Positions 47,344 through 64,000 of a stretch of 64,000 bases of DNA are shown piece by piece; within the stretch, counting starts at the first letter, position 1; each line of letters opens with the position of its first letter. Made by a program: the position numbers and the translations under genes. The stretch spans positions 103,943 through 167,942 of the forward strand of contig CAVRJJ010000005.1 in NCBI GenBank assembly GCA_963721685.1, in the 5' to 3' direction. The notes below the pieces were generated by a model. That model made no database searches, was not told where the DNA came from, and saw only the letters and a program-made list of their open reading frames with translations. This DNA comes from an uncultured bacterium (GTDB lineage: Bacteria > Patescibacteriota > Saccharimonadia > UBA4664 > SCTI01).

Positions 47344-47949
47344 TTAATCCCGGGCAGCCACCGCCCCATAAGCTACTGTGGCGCCCGCTGCCCGCAGCAC
47401 TTGAGCGCACTCACTGAGCGTGGCTCCTGTTGTTAAAACGTCATCAATAAGCAGCACCCGTATTTCCTGCAAATTGCCCTTAGCGCCGAACGCGCCTTTA
47501 ATATGCTCGGCACGCTGGCGCCGCGACTTTCCAACTTGCTGGTTAGCGCGGGCACGGTATAGCAAGCGGCGATAGGGGAGTAGTAACTCACGAGCTAACT
47601 GTTTGGCAATAAGTTCCGCTTGGTTGTAACCTCGCTGACGAAAACGCGAAGTTACCACCGGAACTGCCGTCACCGCGTCTAACTCAAAACGCTTAGGCTC
47701 AAAATAGGGGAGAAGGGCATGAGCAAAAATGGTTGCCGCTTCACGCTGATGCTTGTACTTTAAACGCTTAACAAGTTCGCGCAGCGTTGTTTGGTAAGGC
47801 CCGGCAGCCACGATTTCTGGCACACCAGGGCATGATGCCTGGACCAGCTGAAAAACATCTTCCCAGCAGTTCTGGCAAACCAGGCTTCCTTCATAGTCGC
47901 AGCGCGCACAACATGGCGGCGCCAACAACCTTGCAAGTTGCTGTAGCAT
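47344..47949 (-). CDS. comFC: ComF-family phosphoribosyltransferase (competence protein ComFC-like)
   Basis: N-terminal 4-Cys zinc finger CCARCDYEGSLVCQNCW; PRT motif VLLIDDVLTTGATL. Confidence 0.7.
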   Translation of the reverse strand: MLQQLARLLAPPCCARCDYEGSLVCQNCWEDVFQLVQASCPGVPEIVAAGPYQTTLRELVKRLKYKHQREAATIFAHALLPYFEPKRFELDAVTAVPVVTSRFRQRGYNQAELIAKQLARELLLPYRRLLYRARANQQVGKSRRQRAEHIKGAFGAKGNLQEIRVLLIDDVLTTGATLSECAQVLRAAGATVAYGAVAARD

Positions 47950-50266: not shown

Positions 50267-50677
50267 CTAGCCTCCTGCCGCGTGAATAATAAATGCCGAA
50301 ATCGGTACTGCCAGAAAGGTGACGATCAACCCGATAATAGCATAGAGCAGGGTATTCTTAGCGCTTTCTATACGAGTGGGGTCACCGGTTGAAGTGATAT
50401 AACGCACACCTCCCATAATGACAAAGATGAAGGAAACAATGCCAGCCGCGAACAAGAAAATATTTAAGAACACTTGGAAGTAGGTGAGCCCATCAGGGTC
50501 GCCATTGCTATCAAGCTTTTGGCCATCCGCGTCGCAGCCGCTCATGGCGGGAAGGGCGTCGCAAGCTTTCCCCACAATAGACGATGGCTTGCTGGCTGCC
50601 ACGGCAGGGGAGCTAGCGAAAATAAAACCACTTACCAACACTGTAAGAATAAGCATAAGATGTTTCATTGATTGCAT
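50267..50677 (-). CDS. T4SS pilin-like paralog P5
   Basis: GGVRYITSTGD...AKNTLLYAIIGLIVTFL. Confidence 0.6.
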   Translation of the reverse strand: MQSMKHLMLILTVLVSGFIFASSPAVAASKPSSIVGKACDALPAMSGCDADGQKLDSNGDPDGLTYFQVFLNIFLFAAGIVSFIFVIMGGVRYITSTGDPTRIESAKNTLLYAIIGLIVTFLAVPISAFIIHAAGG

Positions 50678-50710
50678 TGTAACTAAAACACCAGATAGGT
50701 GTCAAAAAGG

Positions 50711-51088
50711 CTAAGGGCTTTTAGCAATAATAAACCCAACAATAAAAGGAGCGAGCACCGACAGCAAAAGGCCAATCGAAGCGTAGATTAGCGTTTGTTT
50801 GGCTCCCTCAACCCGTTGGGCATTGCCGCTGGAAGCCGCGTAGCGTATGCCACCCAGGACCAGGAAAATTACCGACAGCACACCGGCAATCAGCGAAAGG
50901 GTATTAATAGCCCCCTTAGCTATATCGCTTGCCTTTACATTGGGAACATCAAGTTCGCTGGGGTCGTTGGCCAAACACCCGCTGGGGGGGCACTTAGCGT
51001 CGGGATCGGGAGCATCGGCAAAAGCCATTCCTCCCGCCAAAGTCAGGGAAACAAAGCCGCACATAAGCATAATAAAAAAGCGTTTCAT
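50711..51088 (-). CDS. T4SS pilin-like paralog P6
   Basis: GGIRYAASSGN...AKQTLIYASIGLLLSVL. Confidence 0.55.
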   Translation of the reverse strand: MKRFFIMLMCGFVSLTLAGGMAFADAPDPDAKCPPSGCLANDPSELDVPNVKASDIAKGAINTLSLIAGVLSVIFLVLGGIRYAASSGNAQRVEGAKQTLIYASIGLLLSVLAPFIVGFIIAKSP

Positions 51089-51402
51089 TCCAAACCTCTG
51101 GCGAGGAACTCAATTATTAAATAGGCTCCGGCGGATAACATAATTCCCACTACCGCGTGAATAAGTCCGGTTTTAGCCGCGGCGGTTTTGGCCGGTTCGC
51201 CCTGCGAAACAATGTAGAGAATACTGGCATAAATCACATAAATAACCGCCAAAATACCTATCAGCATGAGGAGGATTTCAACAACATTTGCTAAAATAAT
51301 GACGATTTGCTTAATACTGGTGAACTTAAGCTCCCCGGAACCATCCCGAGGGATGCCTTTATAGAGGTTGGGAAAGATATCGGCTAAGAGATGGGTATAC
51401 AT
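51085..51402 (-). CDS. pilin-like paralog P7, lacks signal peptide/Cys region (degenerate)
   Basis: ILYIVSQGEPAKTAAAKTGLIHAVVGIMLSAGAYLII core retained. Confidence 0.4.
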   Translation of the reverse strand: MYTHLLADIFPNLYKGIPRDGSGELKFTSIKQIVIILANVVEILLMLIGILAVIYVIYASILYIVSQGEPAKTAAAKTGLIHAVVGIMLSAGAYLIIEFLARGLE

Positions 51403-52056
51403 TTAAGAACTCGTAAACAGTTTAACATCCGGCGGCAGGATCATTTGAATCAGCCCGAACATAATTACAAACAAGACAAGGCCGGTAATTGCCCCTTTTA
51501 TCCGCTCTTTAGCTTCTTTGGCAATTTCAGGGTCATCGCCGGAAATAACGTACTGCAGCCCGGCAATCACCAGCACCAGCACAAGAATTACCCCAAAGAT
51601 TCCGGTTAAAAATTGCACGCCATATGCCACCAGAGCGAAAATCGGATTTTGGTCGCCGCCGCCGATGCAGCCGCCGGTTCCCAGGGCCTTGCTTACCTTA
51701 ACCCCTTTGCCGGTACAACCGCCGGCGCTGGGGTTGGCCGCCCGGTCGTTGCGACCGCTTTCAGCCCCTTTATCGTACGACTTGTTGCAGGATGTAAGCT
51801 TTGCCCCACGTAAACTGGAGGGCTTACACAGCGCGCTCTTGCTAACACCCCCCTCGGTGTAACCACCTACGAATGCCTTTTTGCACTGCGTTTCACTTAC
51901 CTTGGTTGAAGTGGGGGCGTTGGGGTAACTTCGGCAAAAGTCATTGGCCTGTTCGGTTTTGGAGGCTGGCGCGGCCGAAGCCGTTTCGGTAACCAGAACC
52001 CCGGGAACTCCCAAGGTCATAACCAGCACCATAAGCTGCAGAAGATAACGTTTCAT
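51403..52056 (-). CDS. pilin-like paralog P8 with long Cys/Gly-rich extracellular region
   Basis: Signal peptide, 8 Cys, AGLQYVISGDDPEIAKEAKERIKGAITGLVLFVIMF. Confidence 0.5.
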   Translation of the reverse strand: MKRYLLQLMVLVMTLGVPGVLVTETASAAPASKTEQANDFCRSYPNAPTSTKVSETQCKKAFVGGYTEGGVSKSALCKPSSLRGAKLTSCNKSYDKGAESGRNDRAANPSAGGCTGKGVKVSKALGTGGCIGGGDQNPIFALVAYGVQFLTGIFGVILVLVLVIAGLQYVISGDDPEIAKEAKERIKGAITGLVLFVIMFGLIQMILPPDVKLFTSS

Positions 52057-52108: not shown

Positions 52109-55087
52109 ATGGTGCATTTCGGGGTAAAATCCATTACACTTATGCTTATGAAGAGGAGTAATTCCCGAGTACTCGCGGCGCTCGCCGTCTACCTGTTCGC
52201 GATGGTGGCATCTTTGCTCGTGCCCCTGTTTGCGCAGCCCGCGCAAGCAGCCACGGTAGAGCGCGACTGGGTAATGGTTTTCCCAACCGATAGGGAAGTG
52301 TTAGCTGAAATGAACCGGGAGCTTAGCACGGGCGTTACATCACAGCCTGGTTTTTCCCCGGGTCTGAGCCAAACCTATGTAATGCATAAAAACGACTTAT
52401 GGGATCCGGCCGGGTTTCGTAAGTTTAGCTTTAACCGGGCAGCATCGGACCAAGCAAATTTCCGTTTTTACGCCTTTACCACCTCTTATTACTGTGCCAA
52501 CGATAAAGTAGTTAAATCCAAGCCTTCATCGGGTGACTATTCATTTGTGGAGCTAAAGCTGAACGCGGTTATTAAGGCCGGTTTTGCCAGCACGCCGCCG
52601 CCCACCCACGACACGACCCTTACCGTTAAGCGCTTCACCCACTACAACTCAGCGGGCACCGGGGTGGATTACGAGGTTGGCAACAAAACCAAAACCGGAA
52701 CCCTGCAGCAAGTCGCCCGGCACCGCAGTTGTATGCCCGGGGAAACCGTCTTTTCCCCGACGTCGAGCGCCAGCGACCTATTTGCAATCCGTAATATTAA
52801 AGATCCGGCGGTAAACGATTCCACCTGGGCAAACGCCAAAGACAAGGTACGAGACCAAGTGGAAGCCGACCCGATTACCGGCTCCGACCCTTCGGCGGGT
52901 GGCGGGGGCAGCACCGGCTCAACCGGGGCCGACACCGACCAAGGAGACCAGTGCCCCCGAAAAGCCTTTAACTTTGGCTGGTTGATTTGCCCGGCGCTTG
53001 AACTGGTTAATAATCTCTTTGTGCAAAATTTCCAAAAATTTATGGCTGGCGCTCTCAGCATTGACCCCTTAGACCAAAACGGCGCCGATAAAAATATCTA
53101 CCTGGTATGGAAAAACCTTCGCGACCTCGCGAATGTGCTGTTCCTGCTTATTTTCATGATAATTGTGCTAGCCAACACCCTCTCCATTAATGTGCAGACC
53201 TACACCATTAAAAAGATGATCCCCAAACTGGTAGCGGCGGCGATACTGGTCCAGTTTTCCTTTATCATCAGCGCGGTCATTATAGACGTGGGTAATATCT
53301 TAGGGGATGGCATAGGCGACCTCATTAAGAGCGTGGCAAATACACCGGGAGGCACAAACGATAAAGCCATTGATGGCTTCTTCCAGAACTCCGCCGCCGC
53401 CATAACCGCGGTGGTGGGGGGAGGCTTAATTGTCGGTTCCGCGATTGCCACATCGGGAGCAACGGTTGGTGTGGCGATTGGTGCCATAATACTCGTCGGA
53501 ATAACCGCCTTCTTCGCGTTTTTGTCTATTCTCCTAACCCTCGTGCTGCGGAAGATGATAATCATCATTCTCATTATCGTTTCCCCGCTGGCATTCGCGG
53601 CCATGGTCCTTCCCAGCACCGACAAGTTCTTCAAGATATGGCTGGAAACGTTCATTAAAGTAATTATGATGTACCCGATCATCGTGTTTATGTTTGGGGC
53701 AGCCACCGTTTTGCAAAAAGCCGTGAGTGGCGGCGAAGGCGGCGTGGGCGATGACGCGGGACTGGTAAAAATAATGGCGGCGGCTATGCCAATTGTGGCG
53801 TGCTTTATGGTTCCGAAAGCCTTCGCCTGGGGAGGAAAGTTAATGAGTGGCGGATCTAACGCCATTGACAGTCTGGTGCGCGGTAAGATTGGCGGCAAAG
53901 CCACCGCTAAATTCAAAGCAAGCGACGCCTATACCGTTCCTCGGGCCTTGCGTGAGGGCAACAAGCAAGAAAAAACCGAAGGCCACGCGGGCTTGGACGG
54001 CAAAGATCCCCTCAGCAGGTACCGGCGCTATAAGGCTGGCGTTAAGCTTAGGGGTGACTACCTTGGGGGGAACCGGACCATAGCAAAGGGCGCGGATGGC
54101 AAGTACTGGCATATTGATCCTGATACTGGGAAAAGAACCTTAAATAAATATGGAGATATGTCACGCATGCAGACTAAGCAAAGAAACGCTTATTTGCAAA
54201 AAGGCATTGATGCCAACAAAGAACTTGACCGGAATGAAATACTTGGTCTCTTAGATCCGATGCGACAGGGTGCTCAACACGGAGACTTCAAGGACATTAA
54301 AGAGAATCCGCTGCTTTATGACCAAATGGTGAATGGCATTGGTAGCTATATTGAAAAAGAAGGCAAGCTTCCTTACGCCGAAGCACTCGATGATTTGGCA
54401 GACTTAGGGCATGCCCTCGGTAAAGGTAGTGAAAAGATAGGAATGGACAGGGACTTCCTGATGAGCCGGGACCATAAAGTAGCAGAGGCTCACCCCGTTT
54501 CATCGGAAGGTGCCCAAGTAATGCCGACCGCGCAAAGAGTCGAGCTGAATGACGACGGAACTACTAAAGTTGCCAATAAAGAGTTCCATGGCGTAGAGGG
54601 CTCAGAAGCTAAAAAAGCCACGGTCTTTAAAGAAGGAAGCCATGCACATGAAGATATCAAGAGAAAATTTGGCGCTGAAACATTCATGGGCGATAACCAC
54701 GAACAAGCGGTGGATCAGCTCGCCCACAATTATGTCCAAACTTCTTCAGGAGAACAACAGCGCCTTCTCGACCACCTGCTCGCGGACGATAATAATAAAT
54801 TCGTTCTTCATAACCTAAGAACAACCCCCACCGCCTACCGTAACGTAAAACCCGAAACGGCCGCTGCGGTCGTAAGTCACGCAAACAAGTCCTTGGCTCG
54901 CCTTGGACATCTTAAGTCGACTGGACCTAGTAACGACCAAGAAAGAGCGGAGCTGGCCCTCCTCACCAAAAATGAAAGTAGCTATATAGTTGCCTCCCAT
55001 TTTCAGGACGACCTTACGCAATATAATGACGAAGCCGGTAAGACTGGATCAAAACTCAATCTTGCACTGGAGGATCTAAGGTCATAA
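52109..55087 (+). CDS. VirB6/TrbL-like polytopic T4SS membrane protein with large N-terminal extracytoplasmic domain and C-terminal hydrophilic tail (992 aa)
   Basis: Signal/TM, then >8 TM helices in aa ~330-600; first gene of plus-strand T4SS operon; TAATG coupling to next gene. Confidence 0.5.
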   Translation: MVHFGVKSITLMLMKRSNSRVLAALAVYLFAMVASLLVPLFAQPAQAATVERDWVMVFPTDREVLAEMNRELSTGVTSQPGFSPGLSQTYVMHKNDLWDPAGFRKFSFNRAASDQANFRFYAFTTSYYCANDKVVKSKPSSGDYSFVELKLNAVIKAGFASTPPPTHDTTLTVKRFTHYNSAGTGVDYEVGNKTKTGTLQQVARHRSCMPGETVFSPTSSASDLFAIRNIKDPAVNDSTWANAKDKVRDQVEADPITGSDPSAGGGGSTGSTGADTDQGDQCPRKAFNFGWLICPALELVNNLFVQNFQKFMAGALSIDPLDQNGADKNIYLVWKNLRDLANVLFLLIFMIIVLANTLSINVQTYTIKKMIPKLVAAAILVQFSFIISAVIIDVGNILGDGIGDLIKSVANTPGGTNDKAIDGFFQNSAAAITAVVGGGLIVGSAIATSGATVGVAIGAIILVGITAFFAFLSILLTLVLRKMIIIILIIVSPLAFAAMVLPSTDKFFKIWLETFIKVIMMYPIIVFMFGAATVLQKAVSGGEGGVGDDAGLVKIMAAAMPIVACFMVPKAFAWGGKLMSGGSNAIDSLVRGKIGGKATAKFKASDAYTVPRALREGNKQEKTEGHAGLDGKDPLSRYRRYKAGVKLRGDYLGGNRTIAKGADGKYWHIDPDTGKRTLNKYGDMSRMQTKQRNAYLQKGIDANKELDRNEILGLLDPMRQGAQHGDFKDIKENPLLYDQMVNGIGSYIEKEGKLPYAEALDDLADLGHALGKGSEKIGMDRDFLMSRDHKVAEAHPVSSEGAQVMPTAQRVELNDDGTTKVANKEFHGVEGSEAKKATVFKEGSHAHEDIKRKFGAETFMGDNHEQAVDQLAHNYVQTSSGEQQRLLDHLLADDNNKFVLHNLRTTPTAYRNVKPETAAAVVSHANKSLARLGHLKSTGPSNDQERAELALLTKNESSYIVASHFQDDLTQYNDEAGKTGSKLNLALEDLRS

Positions 55088-55938
55088 TGGGTACCTATAA
55101 AGTTCCTCAAGATGTTGAGTCCGACGATAAGATCTTAGGGCCGTTAAGCATGAAGCAGTTCATCTATGCCATGATCGGCATAGGCTACGGGCTGTTAACC
55201 TTCGCGATTTTAAAATCAGTTATCATCATTTGGATCCTGGTGGGTGTTCCGCCCATGCTCGCGCTACTGGCACTTGGTTTGTACCAGAAAAAAGACCAGT
55301 CAATGGAAACCTACATTGTCAGCATCATCCAATTTATCGTCCGGCCAAAAGTCCGCTATTGGCAAAAGGAGCCAATTGCCGAAGTGTTCCACCTTGAACC
55401 GCCGCCGCCAAAACCGGCCATGGAAATGCGAGATTCGCGTAAAGTCCGCAGCCAGCTGGCGCAGCTAGCCAACGTGGTAGACACCCGCGGCTGGTCGGTT
55501 AAGCATCCCGAGCTGCAAGAGCTCCAGGAGCTGCACGATTTACCAACGGTTGATCTTGGTGGCAGGGTTGGCGGCGGCCAGTTAGGCGGCCCATCCACCG
55601 TGGGAATGGAGCCGCCGGAGGTTAGCGACGAGGATGACATGCTAAGCTCCACTACCACCAAAGCCGGGGAGTTGGACGCGCTGATTGCCAATAGCGTTAA
55701 AAGCCTACGCGCCGAGGTAATGGAGGGCATGGCAGCCGGCCATGTTCCAGGGGACGCTCCTGCCCTCTCAAGCACAAGCGGGATGACAGTGGCCCCATCT
55801 GGTGATATACTCAAATTAGCCGCGGAGGGTGGGGATTTGTCAGTTGCCCAAATTGCTGCCCAAGCCCACCGCTTTAATCAACCAACCGCCGAAGGGCAGC
55901 AAGTGAGCGTGCAGAATGCCAACAGCCAACCAGCCTAA
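55087..55938 (+). CDS. VirB3-like small membrane protein (2 TM near N-terminus) with disordered C-terminal tail
   Basis: FIYAMIGIGYGLLTFAILKSVIIIWILVGVPPMLALLALGLY; position immediately before VirB4. Confidence 0.45.
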   Translation: MGTYKVPQDVESDDKILGPLSMKQFIYAMIGIGYGLLTFAILKSVIIIWILVGVPPMLALLALGLYQKKDQSMETYIVSIIQFIVRPKVRYWQKEPIAEVFHLEPPPPKPAMEMRDSRKVRSQLAQLANVVDTRGWSVKHPELQELQELHDLPTVDLGGRVGGGQLGGPSTVGMEPPEVSDEDDMLSSTTTKAGELDALIANSVKSLRAEVMEGMAAGHVPGDAPALSSTSGMTVAPSGDILKLAAEGGDLSVAQIAAQAHRFNQPTAEGQQVSVQNANSQPA

Positions 55939-56659
55939 TCCCGCCCCCAAGCCCAGCACCCAAGATACACTGCTGATTTCCGAAATCCGCGACGGGGTAG
56001 TGGTGATGCGCGACGGTAGCTTACGCAATGTGCTTATGGCCAGCGCGGTAAACTTTGACCTTATGAGCGCGGGCGAGCGTGAAGGGGTGGAGTACGCCTA
56101 CCAAAGCTTCTTAAACTCGCTGCACTTCCCTATTCAAATTGTGGTTAAGTCGCAGCGGCTGGAGCTTGAAAGCTATATTGCCAATCTCCAGCAACTTCAA
56201 ACCGAGCAAGACAACCCGATGCTCGCTAATTTAATGGATGACTACATTGCCAATATCTTCAACCTGATTGACCAAGTTAATATCATGGATAAGCAGTTTT
56301 ATGTGGTAGTGCCGTTTTATCCGCCCGTGGTGGATAAAATTGCCAAAAAGAATATTGTCTCGAGCATCGCGGGATCATTTAAAAAAACCACTGTTACCAC
56401 CGTTAATGAAACCGACTTTAACGCTTATAAAGAAGAGCTGGCCCAGCGCGTGGGGTTGGTTTCCAGCGGTTTGGGGCAAATGGGGGTTCGTAATATCCCC
56501 CTCAACACCCAGGAATTGATTGATTTGTATTACTCCGCCTACAACCCGGACGCGGCTGAAAACCAAAAGCTGGTTGAGGCCGCCCAATTGCAAACCGCGG
56601 CGGTTACCAAGGGTGAGGGTGAGGCGCCGCGCCACTTGGCCGGCGGAGGGCCGTACTAA
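55916..56659 (+). CDS. probable VirB4 N-terminal domain encoded as separate ORF (247 aa), TAATG-coupled to ATPase ORF
   Basis: Length plus 621 aa = canonical VirB4 size; no TM; overlaps upstream gene by 23 nt in +1 frame. Confidence 0.4.
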   Translation: MPTANQPNPAPKPSTQDTLLISEIRDGVVVMRDGSLRNVLMASAVNFDLMSAGEREGVEYAYQSFLNSLHFPIQIVVKSQRLELESYIANLQQLQTEQDNPMLANLMDDYIANIFNLIDQVNIMDKQFYVVVPFYPPVVDKIAKKNIVSSIAGSFKKTTVTTVNETDFNAYKEELAQRVGLVSSGLGQMGVRNIPLNTQELIDLYYSAYNPDAAENQKLVEAAQLQTAAVTKGEGEAPRHLAGGGPY

Positions 56660-58524
56660 TGGGGGTGTTTGGCGGCAAAAAACCAGTTAATGACCCCATT
56701 GCGCTAGCCGAAGCCCAGAGGGCCAAAGAACAGCAGGAAGCCGAGGCCATTTACCGGCAGGGCATTGTGAGCCTGCGCGATCTTATAGCGCCGCCCAGTT
56801 TGCAGGTAACGGCCGACCACATCCAAATCGGTACCCGCTTCGCCCGGACATTATATGTGTACGGCTATCCCCGCCAGATTTTTACCGGATGGTTAAGCCC
56901 CCTGGTAAACCTTGATGAGGTCATGGACCTAAGCATGTTCATTATGCCGGTCGAAAGCCAAATTGTATTAAACAACCTGAGACGCAAAGTAGGCCAACTG
57001 GAGGCCAGCTACAGTATTAACCAGGAAAAAGGCCGGGTGCGCGATCCCGGCTTAGAAGCGGCCATTATGGACGCCGAGGAGCTGCGCGATAAGCTGCAAG
57101 TTGGTGAGGAGCGGTTTTTCCGCTTTGGTTTATATGCCACCATCTACGCCGACAGCCTGGAAGAGCTCAAGGACGTTCAGCGTAAGATTGAGGGTATTTT
57201 TGGGCAATCGCTGGTTTATACCAAAGCCGCGACCATGCAGATGGAGCCGGGCTTTAATTCTACTCTGCCGCTCGGCACCGACCAGCTTCAAGTAGCGCGC
57301 AACATGGACACCAATGCCCTTTCTACCAGCTTTCCGTTCACCTCAGCCGAACTCAGCCGCAACGAAGGCGTGCTCTACGGTATTAACCGTCACAACAATG
57401 GGCTGGTGCTATTCGACCGATTCAGCCTGGAAAACGCCAACATGGTGGTATTTGCAAAATCCGGAGCCGGTAAAAGCTTCGCAATTAAACTTGAGGCCAT
57501 CCGGAGCTTAATGCTGGGCACTGAAATTCTGGTTATCGACCCCGAAGATGAGTACCGGGCGCTATGCGAAGCCGTTGGAGGCAGCTACTTGCGCCTAAGC
57601 CTAGCCTCCGACAATCGGCTTAATCCATTCGACCTTCCTAGAGTCCTCGACAGTGAAGACGCCGACAATGCCCTGCGGGCCAACATTATCACACTGCACG
57701 GCTTATTGCGCCTGATGATGGGAGGCCAAGCCGCGCCGCTCGGTCCGGCCGAAGACGCCGACTTGGATGTGGCACTCATTAATACCTACGCTAAAGCCGG
57801 CATTACCAACGACCCCCTTACCCACGGTGCCACCCCGCCCACCATGAACGACCTGCATAAGACTTTGTCGGAAATGAGCGGCAACGGTCCCGCGCTGGCC
57901 CAGCGCCTGCGCCAGTACACTACCGGAACATTTGCCGGCATCTTCTCGGAACAATCAAACGTTGACCTCTACAACAAGTTTGTGGTGTTCAACATCCGTG
58001 ACCTGGAAGACGAGCTGCGCCCGGTTGGGATGTACATTGTTCTTAACTACATTTGGAACAAAGTAAAAAGTGACAAGAAGAAGCGCATCCTAATTGTGGA
58101 TGAAGCCTGGCAGCTCATGAAGTTTGAAGATAGCGCTAACTTTATGTTCAGCATTGCCAAGCGAGCCCGAAAATATTTCTTGGGCCTGACCACCATCACC
58201 CAGGATGTCGACGACTTTCTAAGCTCGCGGATGGGCCGCGCGATTGTATCCAACTCATCACTGCAGCTGCTGCTGAAGCAAGCCCCCAGCTCAGTGGATA
58301 TTATTGGCGAAACCTTTAAGCTAACCTCTGAAGAAAAAACCCGGCTTACCACGTTCCCGGTTGGAGAAGGCCTGTTCTTTGCCGGCCTTAACCACGTGGT
58401 GATGCGTATCCTAGCCTCCGAGACCGAAACTCGGCTGATTACCACCAACCCCCAGGCGGTAGCCAAGCAGGAGGCAGCCACACAGGCATACAGAGAGGCC
58501 CAGCAGGAAATAGCGGGGGGCTAA
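56659..58524 (+). CDS. virB4: VirB4/TraC/CagE-family T4SS ATPase (C-terminal ATPase domain)
   Basis: Walker A VVFAKSGAGKSFAIK, Walker B KKKRILIVDEAWQLM. Confidence 0.8.
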   Translation: MGVFGGKKPVNDPIALAEAQRAKEQQEAEAIYRQGIVSLRDLIAPPSLQVTADHIQIGTRFARTLYVYGYPRQIFTGWLSPLVNLDEVMDLSMFIMPVESQIVLNNLRRKVGQLEASYSINQEKGRVRDPGLEAAIMDAEELRDKLQVGEERFFRFGLYATIYADSLEELKDVQRKIEGIFGQSLVYTKAATMQMEPGFNSTLPLGTDQLQVARNMDTNALSTSFPFTSAELSRNEGVLYGINRHNNGLVLFDRFSLENANMVVFAKSGAGKSFAIKLEAIRSLMLGTEILVIDPEDEYRALCEAVGGSYLRLSLASDNRLNPFDLPRVLDSEDADNALRANIITLHGLLRLMMGGQAAPLGPAEDADLDVALINTYAKAGITNDPLTHGATPPTMNDLHKTLSEMSGNGPALAQRLRQYTTGTFAGIFSEQSNVDLYNKFVVFNIRDLEDELRPVGMYIVLNYIWNKVKSDKKKRILIVDEAWQLMKFEDSANFMFSIAKRARKYFLGLTTITQDVDDFLSSRMGRAIVSNSSLQLLLKQAPSSVDIIGETFKLTSEEKTRLTTFPVGEGLFFAGLNHVVMRILASETETRLITTNPQAVAKQEAATQAYREAQQEIAGG

Positions 58525-58527
58525 GCA

Positions 58528-61500
58528 ATGCAGCCAACGCTTTCCCCACAAGATGATGAGGAGCTCGATAACCCGGTTGACGACCATGACGCACTGGGGG
58601 AGGAGGACAACGCACCCTATAGCGATCTGCCGCGCAGCCACCAGCCGGCATCTTCACGCTTCCAGGATGATGCCCAGCGCGGTTTAGATGATATCCCGGT
58701 ACAAGACCCGGCCCACCGCAGCAACCGCCCGGGCGATGGAACAGCCAGGGCCAGTGATGGATCGCCCCTGCCGGGAGGACCCGCCAGCGAGGTCTCATCC
58801 ACGAAAAAAGGCGGGGTGAGTGACGAAGATGGCCCGGAGGGTGAAGAGGGCGAAAAACCAAAGCCCAAAACATCTGCCTACAAGAAATATAAAAGATACA
58901 AGCTGGCCAAAAATACCGCTAAGGCCATGCTGGGCAGCAGGCGGGCGATTTTCGGACTAATCTTCAGCGGCAGCATCATTGGTTTACTGATTGGCGGATT
59001 TTTTCTCCTAGCCCCCTTCAAGCTGATGTTTATGAAAGAAAACATCGATCAAGTCCGGATGGCGCGGATGTATTACATCTTGGATAGGCGCAGCGACCGG
59101 TTCCTGGTAACCATGCTAAAAGCCGAGATAGCGGGCGAAGACGCTGGCGGCCAAAACCGCTACTTTATTGCAAAGGGCTGGGTTGGATCAGAAAACCCCT
59201 TCACCCAGTGGTATAAAGACATGAGAACCGACAAGTTTTTTGAGCAAATGGAGCGCACCCAGGGCGTCCGCTTTATTCGCGAAAAACCGGCGGGTGGCGG
59301 CAAAGACCGCCTGGTAAAACTAAATGTTCGGGGCGAAATAATCGACTTTAGCGCCATAACCAACGATGGCGGCATGGTTTTTGAAGACACCGAACGGTTT
59401 GAGCGGCTGGTAGACACGCGCTACGCGAGCAACAAGGAAGCTCGCCGGGCCTGGAACGGAGCGGTTAAAGACGCCACCAAACGCCACCAGATCATCATGC
59501 GTTATACCATGCGTAAGTGGGGAAGGGAGCGTCTGGGTATTACCAAGTGGCGCTTTTTCGAAAACACCCGAGAGAAAGCCGACGACAAGGTGAGGGCGAC
59601 ATGGAATAAATCCGTCCGTAAGGCCGCGATCAGCGGCAAGGCCATCCGCTGCTTATTTGATGTGGGGCCGTGCCCCGACAGCGACAGCCTAAACGACAGC
59701 GACAACGCGACCGGCGCCCCCGACCCGGAATTTGAACAGGCCGCCAACGAAGCCGATGCCGAGGCGGAACAGGATAGCACGCCCGAAAATCCCAATGACC
59801 CCAGCAAATCGACCCGGCTGTTCGCGAAAAAGATTGTTTTAAAACTCATTCCGTTTGTAAACATTGCGGAGATAATTGACCTCGCGATGCATGTTGACAA
59901 GATGTTTGAAGAAAAGAAGCTGTCTAAAATGGTTGCCGCCTATCGCGCCGCCGAGTACGCGAGCGCCTATTTTACCTTCTCAACCCTTACCGACAACCTT
60001 AAGGCCGGCAAGGACGTGAGCGGCCCGGAGGCTGGCGCGGCGCTAGCGATGTTTAACGGTATGGAAAATAGCGACGGCTACCTGCAAGTTACCAAAAATT
60101 CATCGAGCACCGCCTTCCTTCCCAGCCTGAATAAGGCCTATGCCGCGGATTCTAACCCTATTGATCGGGTTGATGATTCATTCCGCGTTAATGGGTCATC
60201 AAACGCCTCAAAATTTGAAGCCCTTTACGAAAAAACGGTTGGCAAAATTCTTCGCCCCATCCTCAGGGAATGTGACGGACTTATCAATTTCTGTACTATC
60301 GCCAGCAAAATATCCGGCGTTATCGGATCGGTTATTGAAACGATTCTTAAGCCGCTGGTCGCGGTGGCCGCTCCGGTGGGAGGGTTCCTTTTTAGCGCGG
60401 TAGCCGGACAAAGCCCCCAAGAGGCGATGCAGGGAGTAATGGCCGATGCCACGGTTTTCATGGCGGGCTCATCAAAGTGCTCTACAAAATCAGTGAAAGA
60501 ACAGGAAAAAACCGGCAGGGGCGGTGGCCGCCTATTCAATTGTGTTGATGGGGGAGCATCGGTAATAACCGAGGCGGTAACGCAAAATATGGGTGGCGGG
60601 CCCGCCACCACCGTGACCATTAACGAGCTCAACGCCAACATCGCCCAGGCAAAGAGGGAGGAAGATACCGGTAGAAGCCTGTGGGACAAGATCGCTTCCT
60701 TAGAACGAGGGGATTCTTTGGTAGCCAAGCTCATTATGCGCGGCCCGTCATCCGGCAAAGAGCTGGCGGCAAACTTCCAGGGTATGCTTGCCTACATCAA
60801 CCCGGTCAACCTTTTAGATGCCGGCGGTGCCAGCATTGTGGCTCTTTCCAGCCAGCCTTCTTACGCTGATATATTAGATGACAATATGTACGGGGTGGCC
60901 CGGTACGCCGTAAGCGAAGAGGACCTTGCCAAAGAGCCTTATGGCAGCAAGAGCAAAGCCGAATGCGACAAGGAAATGGCCGAATACAAGACCGCCATGG
61001 AGGCCGGCGGCAGCCCCCCAACCAGCATGTGTACGCTGGACTCCGAGGTTGCCAACTCTCTTGCTTGCCTTAATAGTGAAGACCCCGATTGCGCCAGGGT
61101 AGGCGAGCAGGCCATGACACCCTGTCTTGCAGAGCAATCTACCGTAACCAGCCTAACCGGCCAAGCGCCCGTGGATGCCCCTGGCCAAAACCGAAAAATC
61201 GTCCTTATTGGTGATTCACTACTAACGGGTGCCGATGAAACCGGCGACCTCGGGGGCCGGCTTGAGGCCAAAGGTTTCAACGGCGTGGATATCGTAATTG
61301 AGGCATCAAACGGACGCTCAATAACCGGCGCTGGTACCAGCGGGAGCCGGCTTTCCGGGGAAGAGGCGGTTGAGCAGCTGGGCGAGCCTGGCGGGGCAAT
61401 CGACGGCGCCTCCGTGGTTGTGGTGGAGTTAGGCACAAACACCAGCGGAACCCCAGCCCAATTTAAGGCCCAGGTGCGCAAACTTGTTGAATCGATAAAA

Positions 61501-62268
61501 AACGCGGACAAAGAAAGTGATGCCCTAATTTATTGGGTAAGTATTGTGTCCAAAAAAGATGCCAGGTACGCCGCTTATAACGAGGCGATCGAAGAAGTCG
61601 CGGAAAGCGAAAATATCTCGGTAATTACCCCCAAGGACATTAGCCTGAACGCCGATAAAATCCATCCGACACCGGAAGGATATAAAAAGTACGCCCAAGC
61701 CATTGCCGGCGCGGTTGACGCCGACGGTTTAGGTGACGCGGCCAAGCCCGACTGTGGCAACCCGGATGACGCGGTTATTGCCGGCGACGCCCAAGAGATA
61801 GCGGGAAAGCTAAAAGAACTAATGGGCGGAAGCTCGCCGAAGGTGCTTGGCGACAGCCGTTACCTTAAGCAAATTACCAATATTGCTGACGGCAAAGCTG
61901 GCTGCAATGTTGACGAGGCCATCCTTAAGTTGATATATGGCATGACTACTAAAGGCTACCAAGTGAGCATTTCCTCCTTAAACCGCTTTTGCACAAAGGT
62001 GCTGACCGCCTCTGGCGAGGGAAGCAACCACTATAGAAATGGCGGCGGCCACGCGGTGGACTTTCAGGCGGTAAACGGGCAGGCGGTAAATGGCGGGAGC
62101 GCCTTATCGATCAAGTTTATTAAGGATATGGAAGATTTTATGCTAGACGGGACTGAGCTGGGGCAAGTAAACTGCCGCTCGGAACAATTAAGCTTCAGCA
62201 AAAAAGTAAGCCAGGTAAACGACTCTTGCAACCACATTCATGTCGGCTTTGAGCGAGGAGCAGAATAG
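58528..62268 (+). CDS. 1246-aa membrane-anchored multidomain cell-wall hydrolase: acidic disordered N-terminus, one TM, SGNH/GDSL esterase domain (~61190-61700), C-terminal M15-like zinc-peptidase-like region
   Basis: SGNH blocks read directly: IVLIGDSLLTG, ASNGRS, ELGTNT, DKIHPTPEGY; C-terminus SNHYRNGGGHAVDF...NHIHVGF resembles M15/VanY His-Asp-His pattern (weak). Confidence 0.6.
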   Translation: MQPTLSPQDDEELDNPVDDHDALGEEDNAPYSDLPRSHQPASSRFQDDAQRGLDDIPVQDPAHRSNRPGDGTARASDGSPLPGGPASEVSSTKKGGVSDEDGPEGEEGEKPKPKTSAYKKYKRYKLAKNTAKAMLGSRRAIFGLIFSGSIIGLLIGGFFLLAPFKLMFMKENIDQVRMARMYYILDRRSDRFLVTMLKAEIAGEDAGGQNRYFIAKGWVGSENPFTQWYKDMRTDKFFEQMERTQGVRFIREKPAGGGKDRLVKLNVRGEIIDFSAITNDGGMVFEDTERFERLVDTRYASNKEARRAWNGAVKDATKRHQIIMRYTMRKWGRERLGITKWRFFENTREKADDKVRATWNKSVRKAAISGKAIRCLFDVGPCPDSDSLNDSDNATGAPDPEFEQAANEADAEAEQDSTPENPNDPSKSTRLFAKKIVLKLIPFVNIAEIIDLAMHVDKMFEEKKLSKMVAAYRAAEYASAYFTFSTLTDNLKAGKDVSGPEAGAALAMFNGMENSDGYLQVTKNSSSTAFLPSLNKAYAADSNPIDRVDDSFRVNGSSNASKFEALYEKTVGKILRPILRECDGLINFCTIASKISGVIGSVIETILKPLVAVAAPVGGFLFSAVAGQSPQEAMQGVMADATVFMAGSSKCSTKSVKEQEKTGRGGGRLFNCVDGGASVITEAVTQNMGGGPATTVTINELNANIAQAKREEDTGRSLWDKIASLERGDSLVAKLIMRGPSSGKELAANFQGMLAYINPVNLLDAGGASIVALSSQPSYADILDDNMYGVARYAVSEEDLAKEPYGSKSKAECDKEMAEYKTAMEAGGSPPTSMCTLDSEVANSLACLNSEDPDCARVGEQAMTPCLAEQSTVTSLTGQAPVDAPGQNRKIVLIGDSLLTGADETGDLGGRLEAKGFNGVDIVIEASNGRSITGAGTSGSRLSGEEAVEQLGEPGGAIDGASVVVVELGTNTSGTPAQFKAQVRKLVESIKNADKESDALIYWVSIVSKKDARYAAYNEAIEEVAESENISVITPKDISLNADKIHPTPEGYKKYAQAIAGAVDADGLGDAAKPDCGNPDDAVIAGDAQEIAGKLKELMGGSSPKVLGDSRYLKQITNIADGKAGCNVDEAILKLIYGMTTKGYQVSISSLNRFCTKVLTASGEGSNHYRNGGGHAVDFQAVNGQAVNGGSALSIKFIKDMEDFMLDGTELGQVNCRSEQLSFSKKVSQVNDSCNHIHVGFERGAE

Positions 62269-62282
62269 TGGGTGGGCTTAAG

Positions 62283-64000
62283 ATGGTGGCGCCCCCCACG
62301 AGGGTCCACGGCTGGCGCTACGGCCTGTGCTGGGCGCTCATTATAGCGCTTAGCATGCTGGTGCCGGCGCAAGCGCTGGCCATCAGCAAGGCCGACAAAG
62401 AAGCCGTGCTGTATGACACCCCGTACTACGACCCCACCCAATGCCAGGAAGCTCCGGCGCAAGACCTAACCACCGACCCCAAAGGCTCAAGCTCCCAAGA
62501 GAAAGCCTTTGATTTTTACAAGAAACAGGGCGTAAGCGCTGAAGCGGCGGCCGGGATTGTTGGCAACCTTATTGTAGAGTCGGGCGCCAAGCTCAACACT
62601 AGGGCAACCAACGGTAGCCACTGGGGCATAGTGCAGTGGGATGCCGGCCGCTATGCCAAGATGCAAAAATACGCCAAAGACAACAACATGAGCGAATTCA
62701 ACCTGATCGCGCAACTGGAATATTCCTGGATAGAGGCAAAACAAAGGAATGTTCCCGAAGCCATGCGTTCGGCCGACACCCCTGAAAAAGCCGCCGTGGT
62801 GTGGGAAAATCTAGTTGAAAACTGCGGCTGCACCATAGACAAGCGCAAAACCGAAGCCGCGAAGGTGTTTAAAAAATATGGTCGATCTGCCGCGCCTGAC
62901 GACGATGCCGACACCGGTTCCAGCGTTGACCCCATTAACCCACGCTTAAGCTTGGCGGAGGTAGCTAATAAACACAGCCTACATTCAGCAATTATCAAAG
63001 AACTTGATGGCGACACCATAGGAAAATATAAAGCCACTACCGCGCCCAATGCCCCGGGCAGCACAATGAAGCTCATAATTGTAGATGTTGTTTTACAAGA
63101 CGAGCTGAGCCTAAATAAAACCCTTCGCGTATCAAGCGAGTTGCATTACGGCGGGGACAACGACCTGGGCGGCAACACCATATCGGTTCGTGACGCGATC
63201 AAAGCCACTCTTGGAGCCTCCAGTAATGTCGGGGCAAATGTTTTAATAAAAGCGCTGGGTGGCGTAGACGCGTTTAGCACAAAGGCCCATAAATACGGCT
63301 ACACAAAAACCACTATGGAAGAGTATTATCAGCCCGGTCCTGACAACAATACCAGCACGATTCGCGACCAGGCCGAAGCTATGAGCCGGATTTTTGACGA
63401 AACCGGCGAGGGCTACAAAATTGCGCAGAAGGCCTTGCAGGACGCCGCCAACGGAGAGGGCAACCACTTTAATGTTGAGGGAGTGATTGCCACTAAAGGG
63501 GCGTGGACCGACGAGGTGGCGGGCAATGTTGGTAAGTTTAAAATCAGCAACAAGGATTATATAATTGGCTTGTACTACGAGGGTAATTCATCCTCGGAAG
63601 CGGCCAAAAAGGCTATCCGTGAGGGGTCGGCCGACTTGGTCAAGCTAATTAAGACAGGGATACCCTCGAGCGCGGACAGCATAATCGCCAGCTGCTGCCC
63701 GAACGTAGCCACCGACGGCACTCCGGGAAACTCCAACGGTTCGGATGCCGGGGTGTGGAGCAGCGGCCTTAGCGCTCCCTTTATTGTGGAACAATACGCG
63801 ATTGAGGTGCTGAAGAACTTAGCAAAAAAGAAGGGGGTTGAGGAATCGAAGGCTGTTACCAAAGAGCACGTGCTCGCGCTGGTTACCTGGGTGCTTCTAG
63901 AGGGCGGTGATATCGCAAACGACGGCCGCTTTAACCTGTACAATACCGGCAAATCAGCGCCCGAGCTTAACGACGGCGCGCACACCGCTAACGGGCTTGG
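62283..64000 (+). CDS. secreted protein, partial (no stop in window): phage-tail-lysozyme-like domain plus class-A beta-lactamase/PBP-like serine hydrolase domain (SxxK, SxN, KTG)
   Basis: Own translation from ATG 62283: signal MVAPPTRVHGWRYGLCWALIIALSMLVPAQALA; AAAGIVGNLIVESG motif; STMK (63067-63078), SSN, KTG motifs; absent from ORF track. Confidence 0.6.
   Translation, partial: MVAPPTRVHGWRYGLCWALIIALSMLVPAQALAISKADKEAVLYDTPYYDPTQCQEAPAQDLTTDPKGSSSQEKAFDFYKKQGVSAEAAAGIVGNLIVESGAKLNTRATNGSHWGIVQWDAGRYAKMQKYAKDNNMSEFNLIAQLEYSWIEAKQRNVPEAMRSADTPEKAAVVWENLVENCGCTIDKRKTEAAKVFKKYGRSAAPDDDADTGSSVDPINPRLSLAEVANKHSLHSAIIKELDGDTIGKYKATTAPNAPGSTMKLIIVDVVLQDELSLNKTLRVSSELHYGGDNDLGGNTISVRDAIKATLGASSNVGANVLIKALGGVDAFSTKAHKYGYTKTTMEEYYQPGPDNNTSTIRDQAEAMSRIFDETGEGYKIAQKALQDAANGEGNHFNVEGVIATKGAWTDEVAGNVGKFKISNKDYIIGLYYEGNSSSEAAKKAIREGSADLVKLIKTGIPSSADSIIASCCPNVATDGTPGNSNGSDAGVWSSGLSAPFIVEQYAIEVLKNLAKKKGVEESKAVTKEHVLALVTWVLLEGGDIANDGRFNLYNTGKSAPELNDGAHTANGL

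Follow-up and report, generated by a model that had tools for sequence, protein, structure and literature searches.

A protein of 1246 amino acids (aa), encoded in a stretch of 64,000 nucleotides (nt; hereafter the 'window') of contig CAVRJJ010000005.1 from an uncultured bacterium of the Saccharimonadia, is likely to be a membrane-anchored cell-envelope hydrolase of the saccharibacterial type IV secretion system (T4SS), always encoded after virB4, and a functional analogue of PrgK, TraG and CwlT, the wall hydrolases of Gram-positive conjugative systems. Its open reading frame (ORF) occupies positions 58528..62268 of the forward strand and begins with ATG. A preliminary description of this DNA had recognized an esterase and a possible peptidase toward the end of the protein; it overlooked the conserved module of about 700 aa that precedes both enzymes and that defines a large family of proteins.

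Position of the gene behind virB4

Translational coupling joins the gene to both of its neighbours, virB4 upstream and, downstream, a lysozyme/beta-lactamase-like gene. A gap of 3 nt separates its start from the stop of the preceding ORF (56659..58524, forward strand), which encodes a VirB4-like ATPase of 621 aa (Pfam P-loop_TraG, E=8e-29, with AAA_10 and DUF87). Its own TAG stop overlaps by a single base the GTG start of the next ORF at position 62268 (TAGTG), with AGGAG 7 nt upstream of that start; the same 1-nt overlap is also called on an independent contig. The downstream gene (62268..64000, forward strand) runs off the window and combines a Phage_lysozyme2 domain (PF18013, E=1.9e-23) with a DD-peptidase-like Beta-lactamase2 domain (PF13354, E=4.3e-14); on the independent contig, which ends inside the gene, it encodes at least 742 aa.

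The presence of Phage_lysozyme2 in this next gene bears directly upon the proposal, made in the preliminary description, that the protein replaces a VirB1 transglycosylase. Because a lysozyme domain is encoded immediately behind it, the protein would not replace a VirB1-type glycosidase but would be paired with one. The same arrangement recurs elsewhere in the family, in which the directly following gene was found to encode a second peptidoglycan hydrolase at eight of eight related loci (and in all ten of the downstream genes scanned there). The types of this second hydrolase are SLT plus M23, Amidase_2, Phage_lysozyme2 plus M15_4, beta-lactamase plus M23, CHAP and NlpC/P60.

A scan across taxa, conducted with a single peptide pattern against one genome per GTDB species, recovered 11 loci. 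Ten of these carry the label Saccharibacteria, Saccharimonadales, Saccharimonadia or 'Patescibacteria group', and the eleventh only 'uncultured bacterium'; Southlakia does not figure among them. At the eight loci for which upstream DNA is available, the ORFs, matched by size and order alone and not by domain scan, follow one another as a VirB6-like ORF (700-1100 aa), a PrgI-like ORF (~300-385 aa), an ORF of ~250-356 aa, a VirB4-sized ORF (~590-640 aa) and then the family protein.

The helical module that defines the family

Between the membrane anchor and the enzymes lies a mostly alpha-helical, presumably extracytoplasmic module of ~700 aa (aa 164-859; 59017..61104, forward strand), delimited by alignments of homologues and by an AlphaFold2 (AF2) model. 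The region common to homologues is this one (aa ~130-860), and not the enzyme domains; a pair of cysteines within it (Cys375/Cys382) is invariant in the homologue alignment. In the AF2 model the module is almost all alpha-helical, with a predicted local distance difference test score (pLDDT) of 67 and a predicted template-modelling score (pTM) of 0.72. Scans of the whole protein returned no Pfam or NCBIfam match for the module (and no NCBIfam match of any kind), a profile of the module matched no sequence in the PDB, a Foldseek search of the PDB gave no meaningful match (best E=0.13, template-modelling score (TM-score) 0.05), and a phmmer search of the whole protein against the PDB produced a spurious low-complexity match only.

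Word-indexed searches, which returned 13-17 relatives, had suggested a 'rare family', an impression that was overturned when the module profile (alignment A3) was searched exhaustively, by hidden Markov model (HMM), against 1.84 billion cluster representatives at 50% identity. Because that search found 1934 representatives at E<=1e-3 (674 of them at E<=1e-30), the family must be regarded as large rather than rare. Its typical members are 850-1350 aa in length, with the module at residues ~100-900.

The SGNH esterase cassette

Behind the module, aa 885-1065 (61180..61722, forward strand) form a cassette of the SGNH/GDSL esterase type. The Pfam family Lipase_GDSL_2 (PF13472) matches aa 894-1053 with E=6.9e-12 and 46.7 bits (cut-off 32.9 bits), over positions 2-177 of its 178, and Lipase_GDSL also scores above its own cut-off, SASA just below. 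The SGNH domain and the ordered blocks described earlier are borne out by this match and by the residues themselves: Block I reads G895-D-S897-L, Block III G969-T-N971-T and Block V D1043-K-I-H1046, and a candidate for Block II, G929-R-S (within N-G-R-S), aligns with G/S-R in homologues, in a column that is not invariant. The predicted catalytic residues are S897, N971, D1043 and H1046, with G929 as a questionable further member. Since the G-D-S, the G-x-N and the histidine are invariant in 12 homologous cassettes, with the aspartate at -3 from the histidine present in most, the domain is probably active.

The choice of substrate is a separate matter. When the SGNH profile was compared with the PDB, the top solved match was the SGNH domain at the C-terminus of Staphylococcus aureus OatA (6wn9/6vjp, E=2e-8; the identity of 6VJP as this domain is confirmed in PMC9487903), with Escherichia coli TesA (thioesterase I/lysophospholipase L1) at 2.7e-8, a CE2 esterase at 1e-7, CE3 esterases also matched, Ape1 (4k3u) at 8e-4 and PatB at 0.06. 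Because the OatA domain and TesA score alike, the sequence does not single out a substrate. The suggestion that the cassette is specifically a peptidoglycan de-O-acetylase is drawn from its context, since its companions, both in the protein and in the gene that follows, are peptidoglycan enzymes, and is put forward here tentatively, as an idea that may well prove wrong.

A competing view, possible but doubtful, holds that the domain is a lipase or lysophospholipase, or an esterase for teichoic acid, lipoteichoic acid or capsular polysaccharide. The equality of the TesA and OatA matches, the appearance of CE2 and CE3 esterases, and the lower rank of Ape1 all agree with this view, as does a search of the SGNH profile against 5.8 billion proteins, in which the relatives outside the family were small stand-alone SGNH proteins with generic names only, the closest of them annotated 'lysophospholipase L1-like esterase'. 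Sister cassettes of the GDPD and Exo_endo_phos types, moreover, would act on teichoic acids or lipids. Those source annotations are generic, however, and the enzyme domains that accompany the cassette, in the protein and in the adjoining gene, are all of peptidoglycan-enzyme type (LAS, lysozyme-like and DD-peptidase-like). O-acetylation of N-acetylmuramic acid (MurNAc) blocks both lysozymes and lytic transglycosylases, and it is because this modification blocks glycan cleavage that Ape1 is needed in Gram-negative bacteria; a simple rationale therefore exists for placing a de-O-acetylating esterase beside a lysozyme.

The cassette resembles Ape1, the C-terminal domain of OatA and PatB in its SGNH fold family and blocks, in its presumed extracytoplasmic location and in its association with peptidoglycan enzymes, but differs from them in having neither an AT3 partner nor the accessory domain specific to Ape1, and in matching OatA no better than TesA. 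It could be argued that the domain is an O-acetyltransferase, as are the OatA C-terminal domain and PatB, or that one or both enzyme domains of the protein are regulatory or binding modules, as are LytM and CHAP in PrgK; OatA is, after all, the best solved relative, and PrgK provides a precedent (PMC12857230). Such an outcome is considered very improbable, given that both domains retain all of their catalytic residues throughout the cassette families, that the protein contains no AT3 or MBOAT acetyl-donor domain by Pfam, that no AT3-fused, OatA-like proteins occur among the relatives of the SGNH profile in the 5.8 billion proteins searched, and that the OatA match is statistically tied with those to hydrolases.

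The C-terminal LAS zinc peptidase cassette

The final cassette (aa 1085-1246; 61780..62265, forward strand) is predicted, from its motif and its model, to be an M15-like zinc peptidase of the LAS type (Hedgehog/DD-peptidase fold, M15/M74-like) with an intact metal site. The motif runs S1166-N-H1168 … G1174-H-A1176-V-D1178 … H1236-I-H1238, in which H1168, D1178 and H1238 are the predicted zinc ligands and H1236 the predicted catalytic histidine. An alignment of the last ~160 aa of the protein with nine homologous C-termini (10 sequences) contains as its sole invariant columns S, H, G, D, H and H. Together these make up the LAS/M15 signature, and the motif goes well beyond anything that chance would give.

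Several comparisons point to the same fold. A profile of the C-terminal domain, searched against all PDB sequences, matched the N-domains of Sonic, Indian and Desert hedgehog (best the Sonic domain, ShhN, at E=1.4e-3; the alignment takes in the S-L-H-Y-x-G-x-A-V-D zinc motif) and, at E=0.23, the L-alanyl-D-glutamate peptidase of phage T5. An AF2 model built from the 10-sequence alignment reached a pLDDT of 88.8 and a pTM of 0.88, and its four best Foldseek matches in the PDB were all LAS proteins, namely ShhN (probability 0.98, E=0.014) and MepA three times (E=0.04-0.07), with ChiX lower down; this support is modest, with TM-scores of 0.44-0.47 and E-values of 0.014-0.07. Alignment with hhalign to VanY-type cassettes of the same family gave a probability of 81% and E=1.2e-5 across the core formed by the helix and the zinc motif, and a Foldseek search of the model against BFVD was uninformative (best match an uncharacterised phage protein, E=1.3e-3).

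The signature S-x-H…G-x-A-x-D…H-x-H is one that the protein has in common with the LAS metallopeptidases at large, including MepA (M74), VanY, VanX and the zinc DD-carboxypeptidase (M15), the L-Ala-D-Glu peptidases of T5 and ChiX, and the Hedgehog N-domain. The earlier comparison with VanY-like M15 peptidases can therefore be retained as regards the LAS-type fold and the zinc motif, but strict M15 membership fails, both because no Pfam M15 family (and no M74 family) matches the protein at E<=1, in the search that identified Lipase_GDSL_2, and because the spacing between histidine and aspartate is H-x9-D (S1166-N-H-Y-R-N-G-G-G-H-A-V-D1178) instead of the canonical H-x6-D. The insertion of three residues responsible for this spacing is common to the protein and to one homologue (P0003), and the other homologues have x6. 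We take the H-x-H ending to be closer to that of MepA and Hedgehog than to the E-x-x-H of VanX and VanY.

Exchange of cassettes

The region behind the module differs greatly from one family member to the next. Among 158 representatives, 34 end no more than 30 aa past the module, about 100 carry a further 100-250 aa, and 20 carry more than 250 aa. A Pfam scan of 55 members with tails longer than 200 aa identified VanY in 21 of them, Lipase_GDSL_2 (SGNH) in 10, Peptidase_M23 in six, Exo_endo_phos (EEP) in four, Peptidase_M14 in three, GDPD in two, and CHAP, Amidase_3, SLT_2, Beta-lactamase2/Peptidase_S11 and M74 in one each; VanY was also matched in loci L004 and L007. With an iterative HMM built from the SGNH domain of the window, that domain was found in 12 of the 158 representatives, always directly behind the module. 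It stands alone in four (P0104, P0126, P0129 and P0150), precedes a LAS domain of the window's type in three (P0001, P0015 and P0135), VanY in P0101 and M23 in P0010, and in the remaining three comes before a tail with no assigned domain.

The SGNH and peptidase domains are, in other words, interchangeable cassettes, drawn from more than ten enzyme types that occupy this slot. P0004 and P0005 have modules with 87% identity but unrelated C-termini (a 167-aa LAS domain in the former, a beta-lactamase/S11 domain with an M15-like domain in the latter), so that a recent exchange of cassettes is indicated. In the protein of the window the LAS domain is nearest to that of P0003 (53% identity) and the module to that of P0002 (48% vs 38%), and the nearest neighbours, by module identity, of proteins that carry SGNH are mostly without it. 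In some members Exo_endo_phos, GDPD or M14 domains are found in the SGNH slot (for example, at L008:9680-13750); the phosphoesterase and M14 cassettes suggest that more than peptidoglycan is attacked, for instance teichoic acids or lipids.

A conserved N-terminal module joined to a variable C-terminal enzyme resembles the organization of polymorphic toxins, and an alternative explanation follows that outline, in which the module would serve as a stalk or as a delivery domain, bringing exchangeable enzymes to the envelope of the host (Actinobacteria); the cassettes would then be fitted to the wall chemistries of different hosts and not to the upkeep of the epibiont's own wall. The cassettes collectively attack ester, phosphodiester, peptide, amide and glycosidic bonds; the swap between 87%-identical modules is recent and the SGNH domain is scattered; and Southlakia requires its T4SS, which has neither coupling protein nor relaxase, specifically in order to grow on the host (PMC10633639). 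Against these points, the protein has an N-terminal transmembrane (TM) anchor and no evident release site, and the gene next to it is another hydrolase rather than a small, immunity-like gene. The hydrolases of Gram-positive conjugative T4SSs, furthermore, also vary in their domains, yet act on the donor's own wall (PMC12857230). Because of the anchor and of this comparable diversity of domains, action upon the host is judged unlikely.

The N-terminal tail and membrane anchor

The N-terminal tail (aa 1-140; 58528..58947, forward strand) is acidic, of low complexity and rich in proline, serine and glycine, and ends in a basic cluster (KKYKRYKLAKNTAKAMLGSRR) of the positive-inside kind; its first 128 residues include 27 acidic and 17 basic residues, 15 prolines, 13 serines and 12 glycines. 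A single strong TM helix follows at aa 141-163 (58948..59016, forward strand), with a maximum of 2.32 in a 19-residue Kyte-Doolittle window. The acidic low-complexity tail and lone TM helix of the preliminary description are thus confirmed by composition and hydrophobicity. The length of the tail differs among homologues, and the position of the helix is conserved in all of those aligned.

Two further features of the N-terminal half were noted in passing. A motif at the extreme N-terminus, 'VYD[DEPS]E' or 'PEEY' within the first 25 aa, is found in 75 of 139 full-length family members (for example, P0011, P0020, P0022, P0028 and P0037) and is degenerate in the protein of the window (58528-58600; MQPTLSPQDDEELD); it might serve as a docking peptide for a cytoplasmic partner in the T4SS. 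Inside the module, two weaker hydrophobic stretches, helical and rich in glycine and alanine, lie at aa 431-456 (59818-59895) and aa 584-629 (60277-60414), with Kyte-Doolittle values of 1.6-1.8. Both fall in poorly predicted regions of the AF2 model, the second being its lowest-confidence part, and they could be segments embedded in the membrane or in a partner protein.

Neighbouring genes

The placement of the gene inside a T4SS operon, as first described, holds when its surroundings are examined by domain scan. Upstream of virB4, positions 52109..56659 (forward strand) contain a VirB6/TrbL-like gene of 992 aa (Pfam TrbL, 1.6e-3, below cut-off), a PrgI/VirB3-like gene of 283 aa (PrgI, 5.7e-14) and an ORF of 247 aa. 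The last of these (55916-56659, forward strand) overlaps the end of the PrgI-like gene, abuts virB4 and had no match in the Pfam scan; counterparts of 248-356 aa stand at the same position at seven of the eight related loci for which upstream DNA is available. A survey of patescibacterial T4SSs published in 2025 describes a TrsD-like (VirB4 N-terminal-like) protein adjoining virB4 (PMC12102498), and the 247-aa ORF, judged by its position beside virB4, may be such a protein.

Four pilin genes (PF18895, E=1e-6 to 2.5e-11; 136, 125, 105 and 217 aa) occupy positions 50267..52056 of the reverse strand and are transcribed divergently from the T4SS operon; a multi-pilin arrangement of this kind is reported to be essential in Southlakia. 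A few kilobases from the pilin genes lies an ORF of 201 aa (47344-47949, reverse strand), in which a phosphoribosyltransferase domain is combined with a double zinc ribbon, presumably a ComF-like architecture.

Comparison with known secretion systems

In Southlakia epibionticum, the T4SS cluster SEML1_0006-0019 was identified by transposon sequencing (Tn-seq) as essential for epibiotic growth (Wang et al. 2023, PMC10633639). Within that cluster SEML1_0008 is VirB4-like; SEML1_0007, directly downstream of it, is 1113 aa long, with aa 951-1105 assigned to a Hedgehog/DD-peptidase ECOD domain; and SEML1_0006 contains two lysozyme-like domains and a cysteine protease. All three scored as essential (PMC10633639 Tables S1/S2). 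The best structural neighbours of SEML1_0007 are annotated as 'Peptidase M15B' and 'Peptidase M23' domain proteins (PMC10633639), which parallels the variation of cassettes within the family described here.

From SEML1_0011 to SEML1_0006, Southlakia has genes whose order and sizes are mirrored in the window, where products of 992, 283, 247, 621 and 1246 aa are followed by a gene of lysozyme type and the pilins are divergent. SEML1_0007 and the protein of the window each belong to a saccharibacterium, are encoded directly after virB4 and before a lysozyme-type gene in a cluster with divergent pilins, are of roughly 1100 aa or more, and end in a Hedgehog/DD-peptidase domain. From position, size, architecture and chromosomal context, and as compared by published description and not by alignment, the protein of the window appears to be the positional counterpart of SEML1_0007. 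The two differ in that no SGNH domain is reported for SEML1_0007, whereas an esterase cassette of ~180 aa precedes the peptidase in the window; and in that it is SEML1_0007 for which Tn-seq has established essentiality.

A family member of 1113 aa (P0139) was considered as SEML1_0007 itself and was rejected, since it comes from a JGI metagenome and is of the M23 variety; its locus nevertheless shows the recF-dnaN neighbourhood. On one related metagenomic contig, the family gene and its partner hydrolase (L012:6246-8560, reverse strand) adjoin recF and dnaN. Such a position close to the origin has been described both for T4SS clusters of Patescibacteria and for Southlakia, in which SEML1_0007 adjoins recF-dnaN (PMC10633639).

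Among better-studied proteins, the closest in kind are PrgK (pCF10), TraG (pIP501), Orf14 (Tn916) and CwlT (ICEBs1), which are likewise encoded in T4SS operons beside VirB4 and likewise combine an N-terminal membrane anchor with several wall-degrading domains; hydrolases of this type are needed to pass a thick wall (PMC12857230, PMC12102498). The resemblance is one of arrangement, in that no sequence similarity to any of the four was detected in Pfam, NCBIfam or PDB searches. The Gram-positive hydrolases combine an SLT or muramidase domain with CHAP, NlpC/P60 or LytM and are without the ~700-aa helical module. The saccharibacterial protein, in contrast, pairs an SGNH esterase with a LAS peptidase, contains no glycosidase domain (SLT or muramidase) by Pfam and NCBIfam scans, and has its glycosidase in the next gene instead.

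According to a review of T4SSs published in 2025, the domains found in Gram-positive VirB1-like hydrolases are CHAP, SLT, muramidase and LytM (PMC12857230). What was already known is that the family had been flagged as essential in Southlakia, without a name; what appears to be new is the SGNH cassette, a domain that was found described for T4SS wall hydrolases neither in that review nor in a full-text literature search on SGNH, type IV secretion and peptidoglycan.

A proposed mode of action

In the arrangement that we favor, that of a cell-envelope hydrolase belonging to the T4SS, the acidic tail would lie in the cytoplasm, as the positive-inside cluster suggests, and the TM helix would anchor the protein next to the VirB3/VirB4/VirB6 translocon, a placement suggested by the coupling of the operon and by its conserved synteny. 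The ~700-aa module would project outward as a scaffold specific to the family and would present at its end the SGNH serine esterase (with its Ser-Asn-Asp-His set intact) and the LAS zinc peptidase (with its H/D/H set intact), both presumably active. Together with the lysozyme/DD-peptidase-like product of the next gene, the protein would open the cell wall locally and make way for the channel of the T4SS and its pilus. The most probable task of the esterase would be to strip O-acyl (O-acetyl) groups that block glycan cleavage, and the peptidase would cut stem peptides or cross-links.

A number of considerations weigh against so complete a picture. Both enzymatic activities are predictions from sequence and structural model, and the example of PrgK, where regulation and not catalysis is the role of two of the three hydrolase-like domains (PMC12857230), shows that intact-looking domains need not be active ones. 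The OatA C-terminal domain and TesA are tied as matches to the SGNH cassette, whose nearest relatives outside the family are generic esterases, and the fact that EEP and GDPD phosphoesterases can occupy this position speaks against peptidoglycan as the only target. The model of the module is of medium confidence and has no detectable relative, which makes the role of scaffold a conjecture, and the link to SEML1_0007 is one of position, size, architecture and context and not of aligned sequence.

A more ambitious interpretation, regarded as rather improbable, would see in the module a core part of the patescibacterial T4SS that has so far escaped notice, a stalk that spans the wall and displays exchangeable envelope-degrading enzymes, matched to the host, at the interface between epibiont and host. 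If so, the set of cassettes would be a determinant of host range, and the SGNH domain would strip O-acetyl or acyl groups from the host wall so that the co-encoded lysozyme could breach it, opening a conduit for feeding and secretion.

Significance

The gene itself will not surprise a specialist in T4SSs or in the candidate phyla radiation (CPR); it is the family-wide picture that constitutes a useful and testable lead. That picture consists of ~1900 clusters (at 50% identity) built upon a 700-aa module for which Pfam holds no model, to which esterases, phosphoesterases, peptidases, amidases and glycosidases have been shuffled, with the SGNH esterase as a recurrent member of this 'toolbox' of cassettes. 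The handles that it offers for experiment are the bonds that are cut, the wall to which those bonds belong, and whether the type of cassette tracks the host. Before the saccharibacterial T4SS, no T4SS had been shown to be indispensable to the life of the cell that possesses it, and the protein encoded behind virB4 is among the essential parts of the saccharibacterial system.

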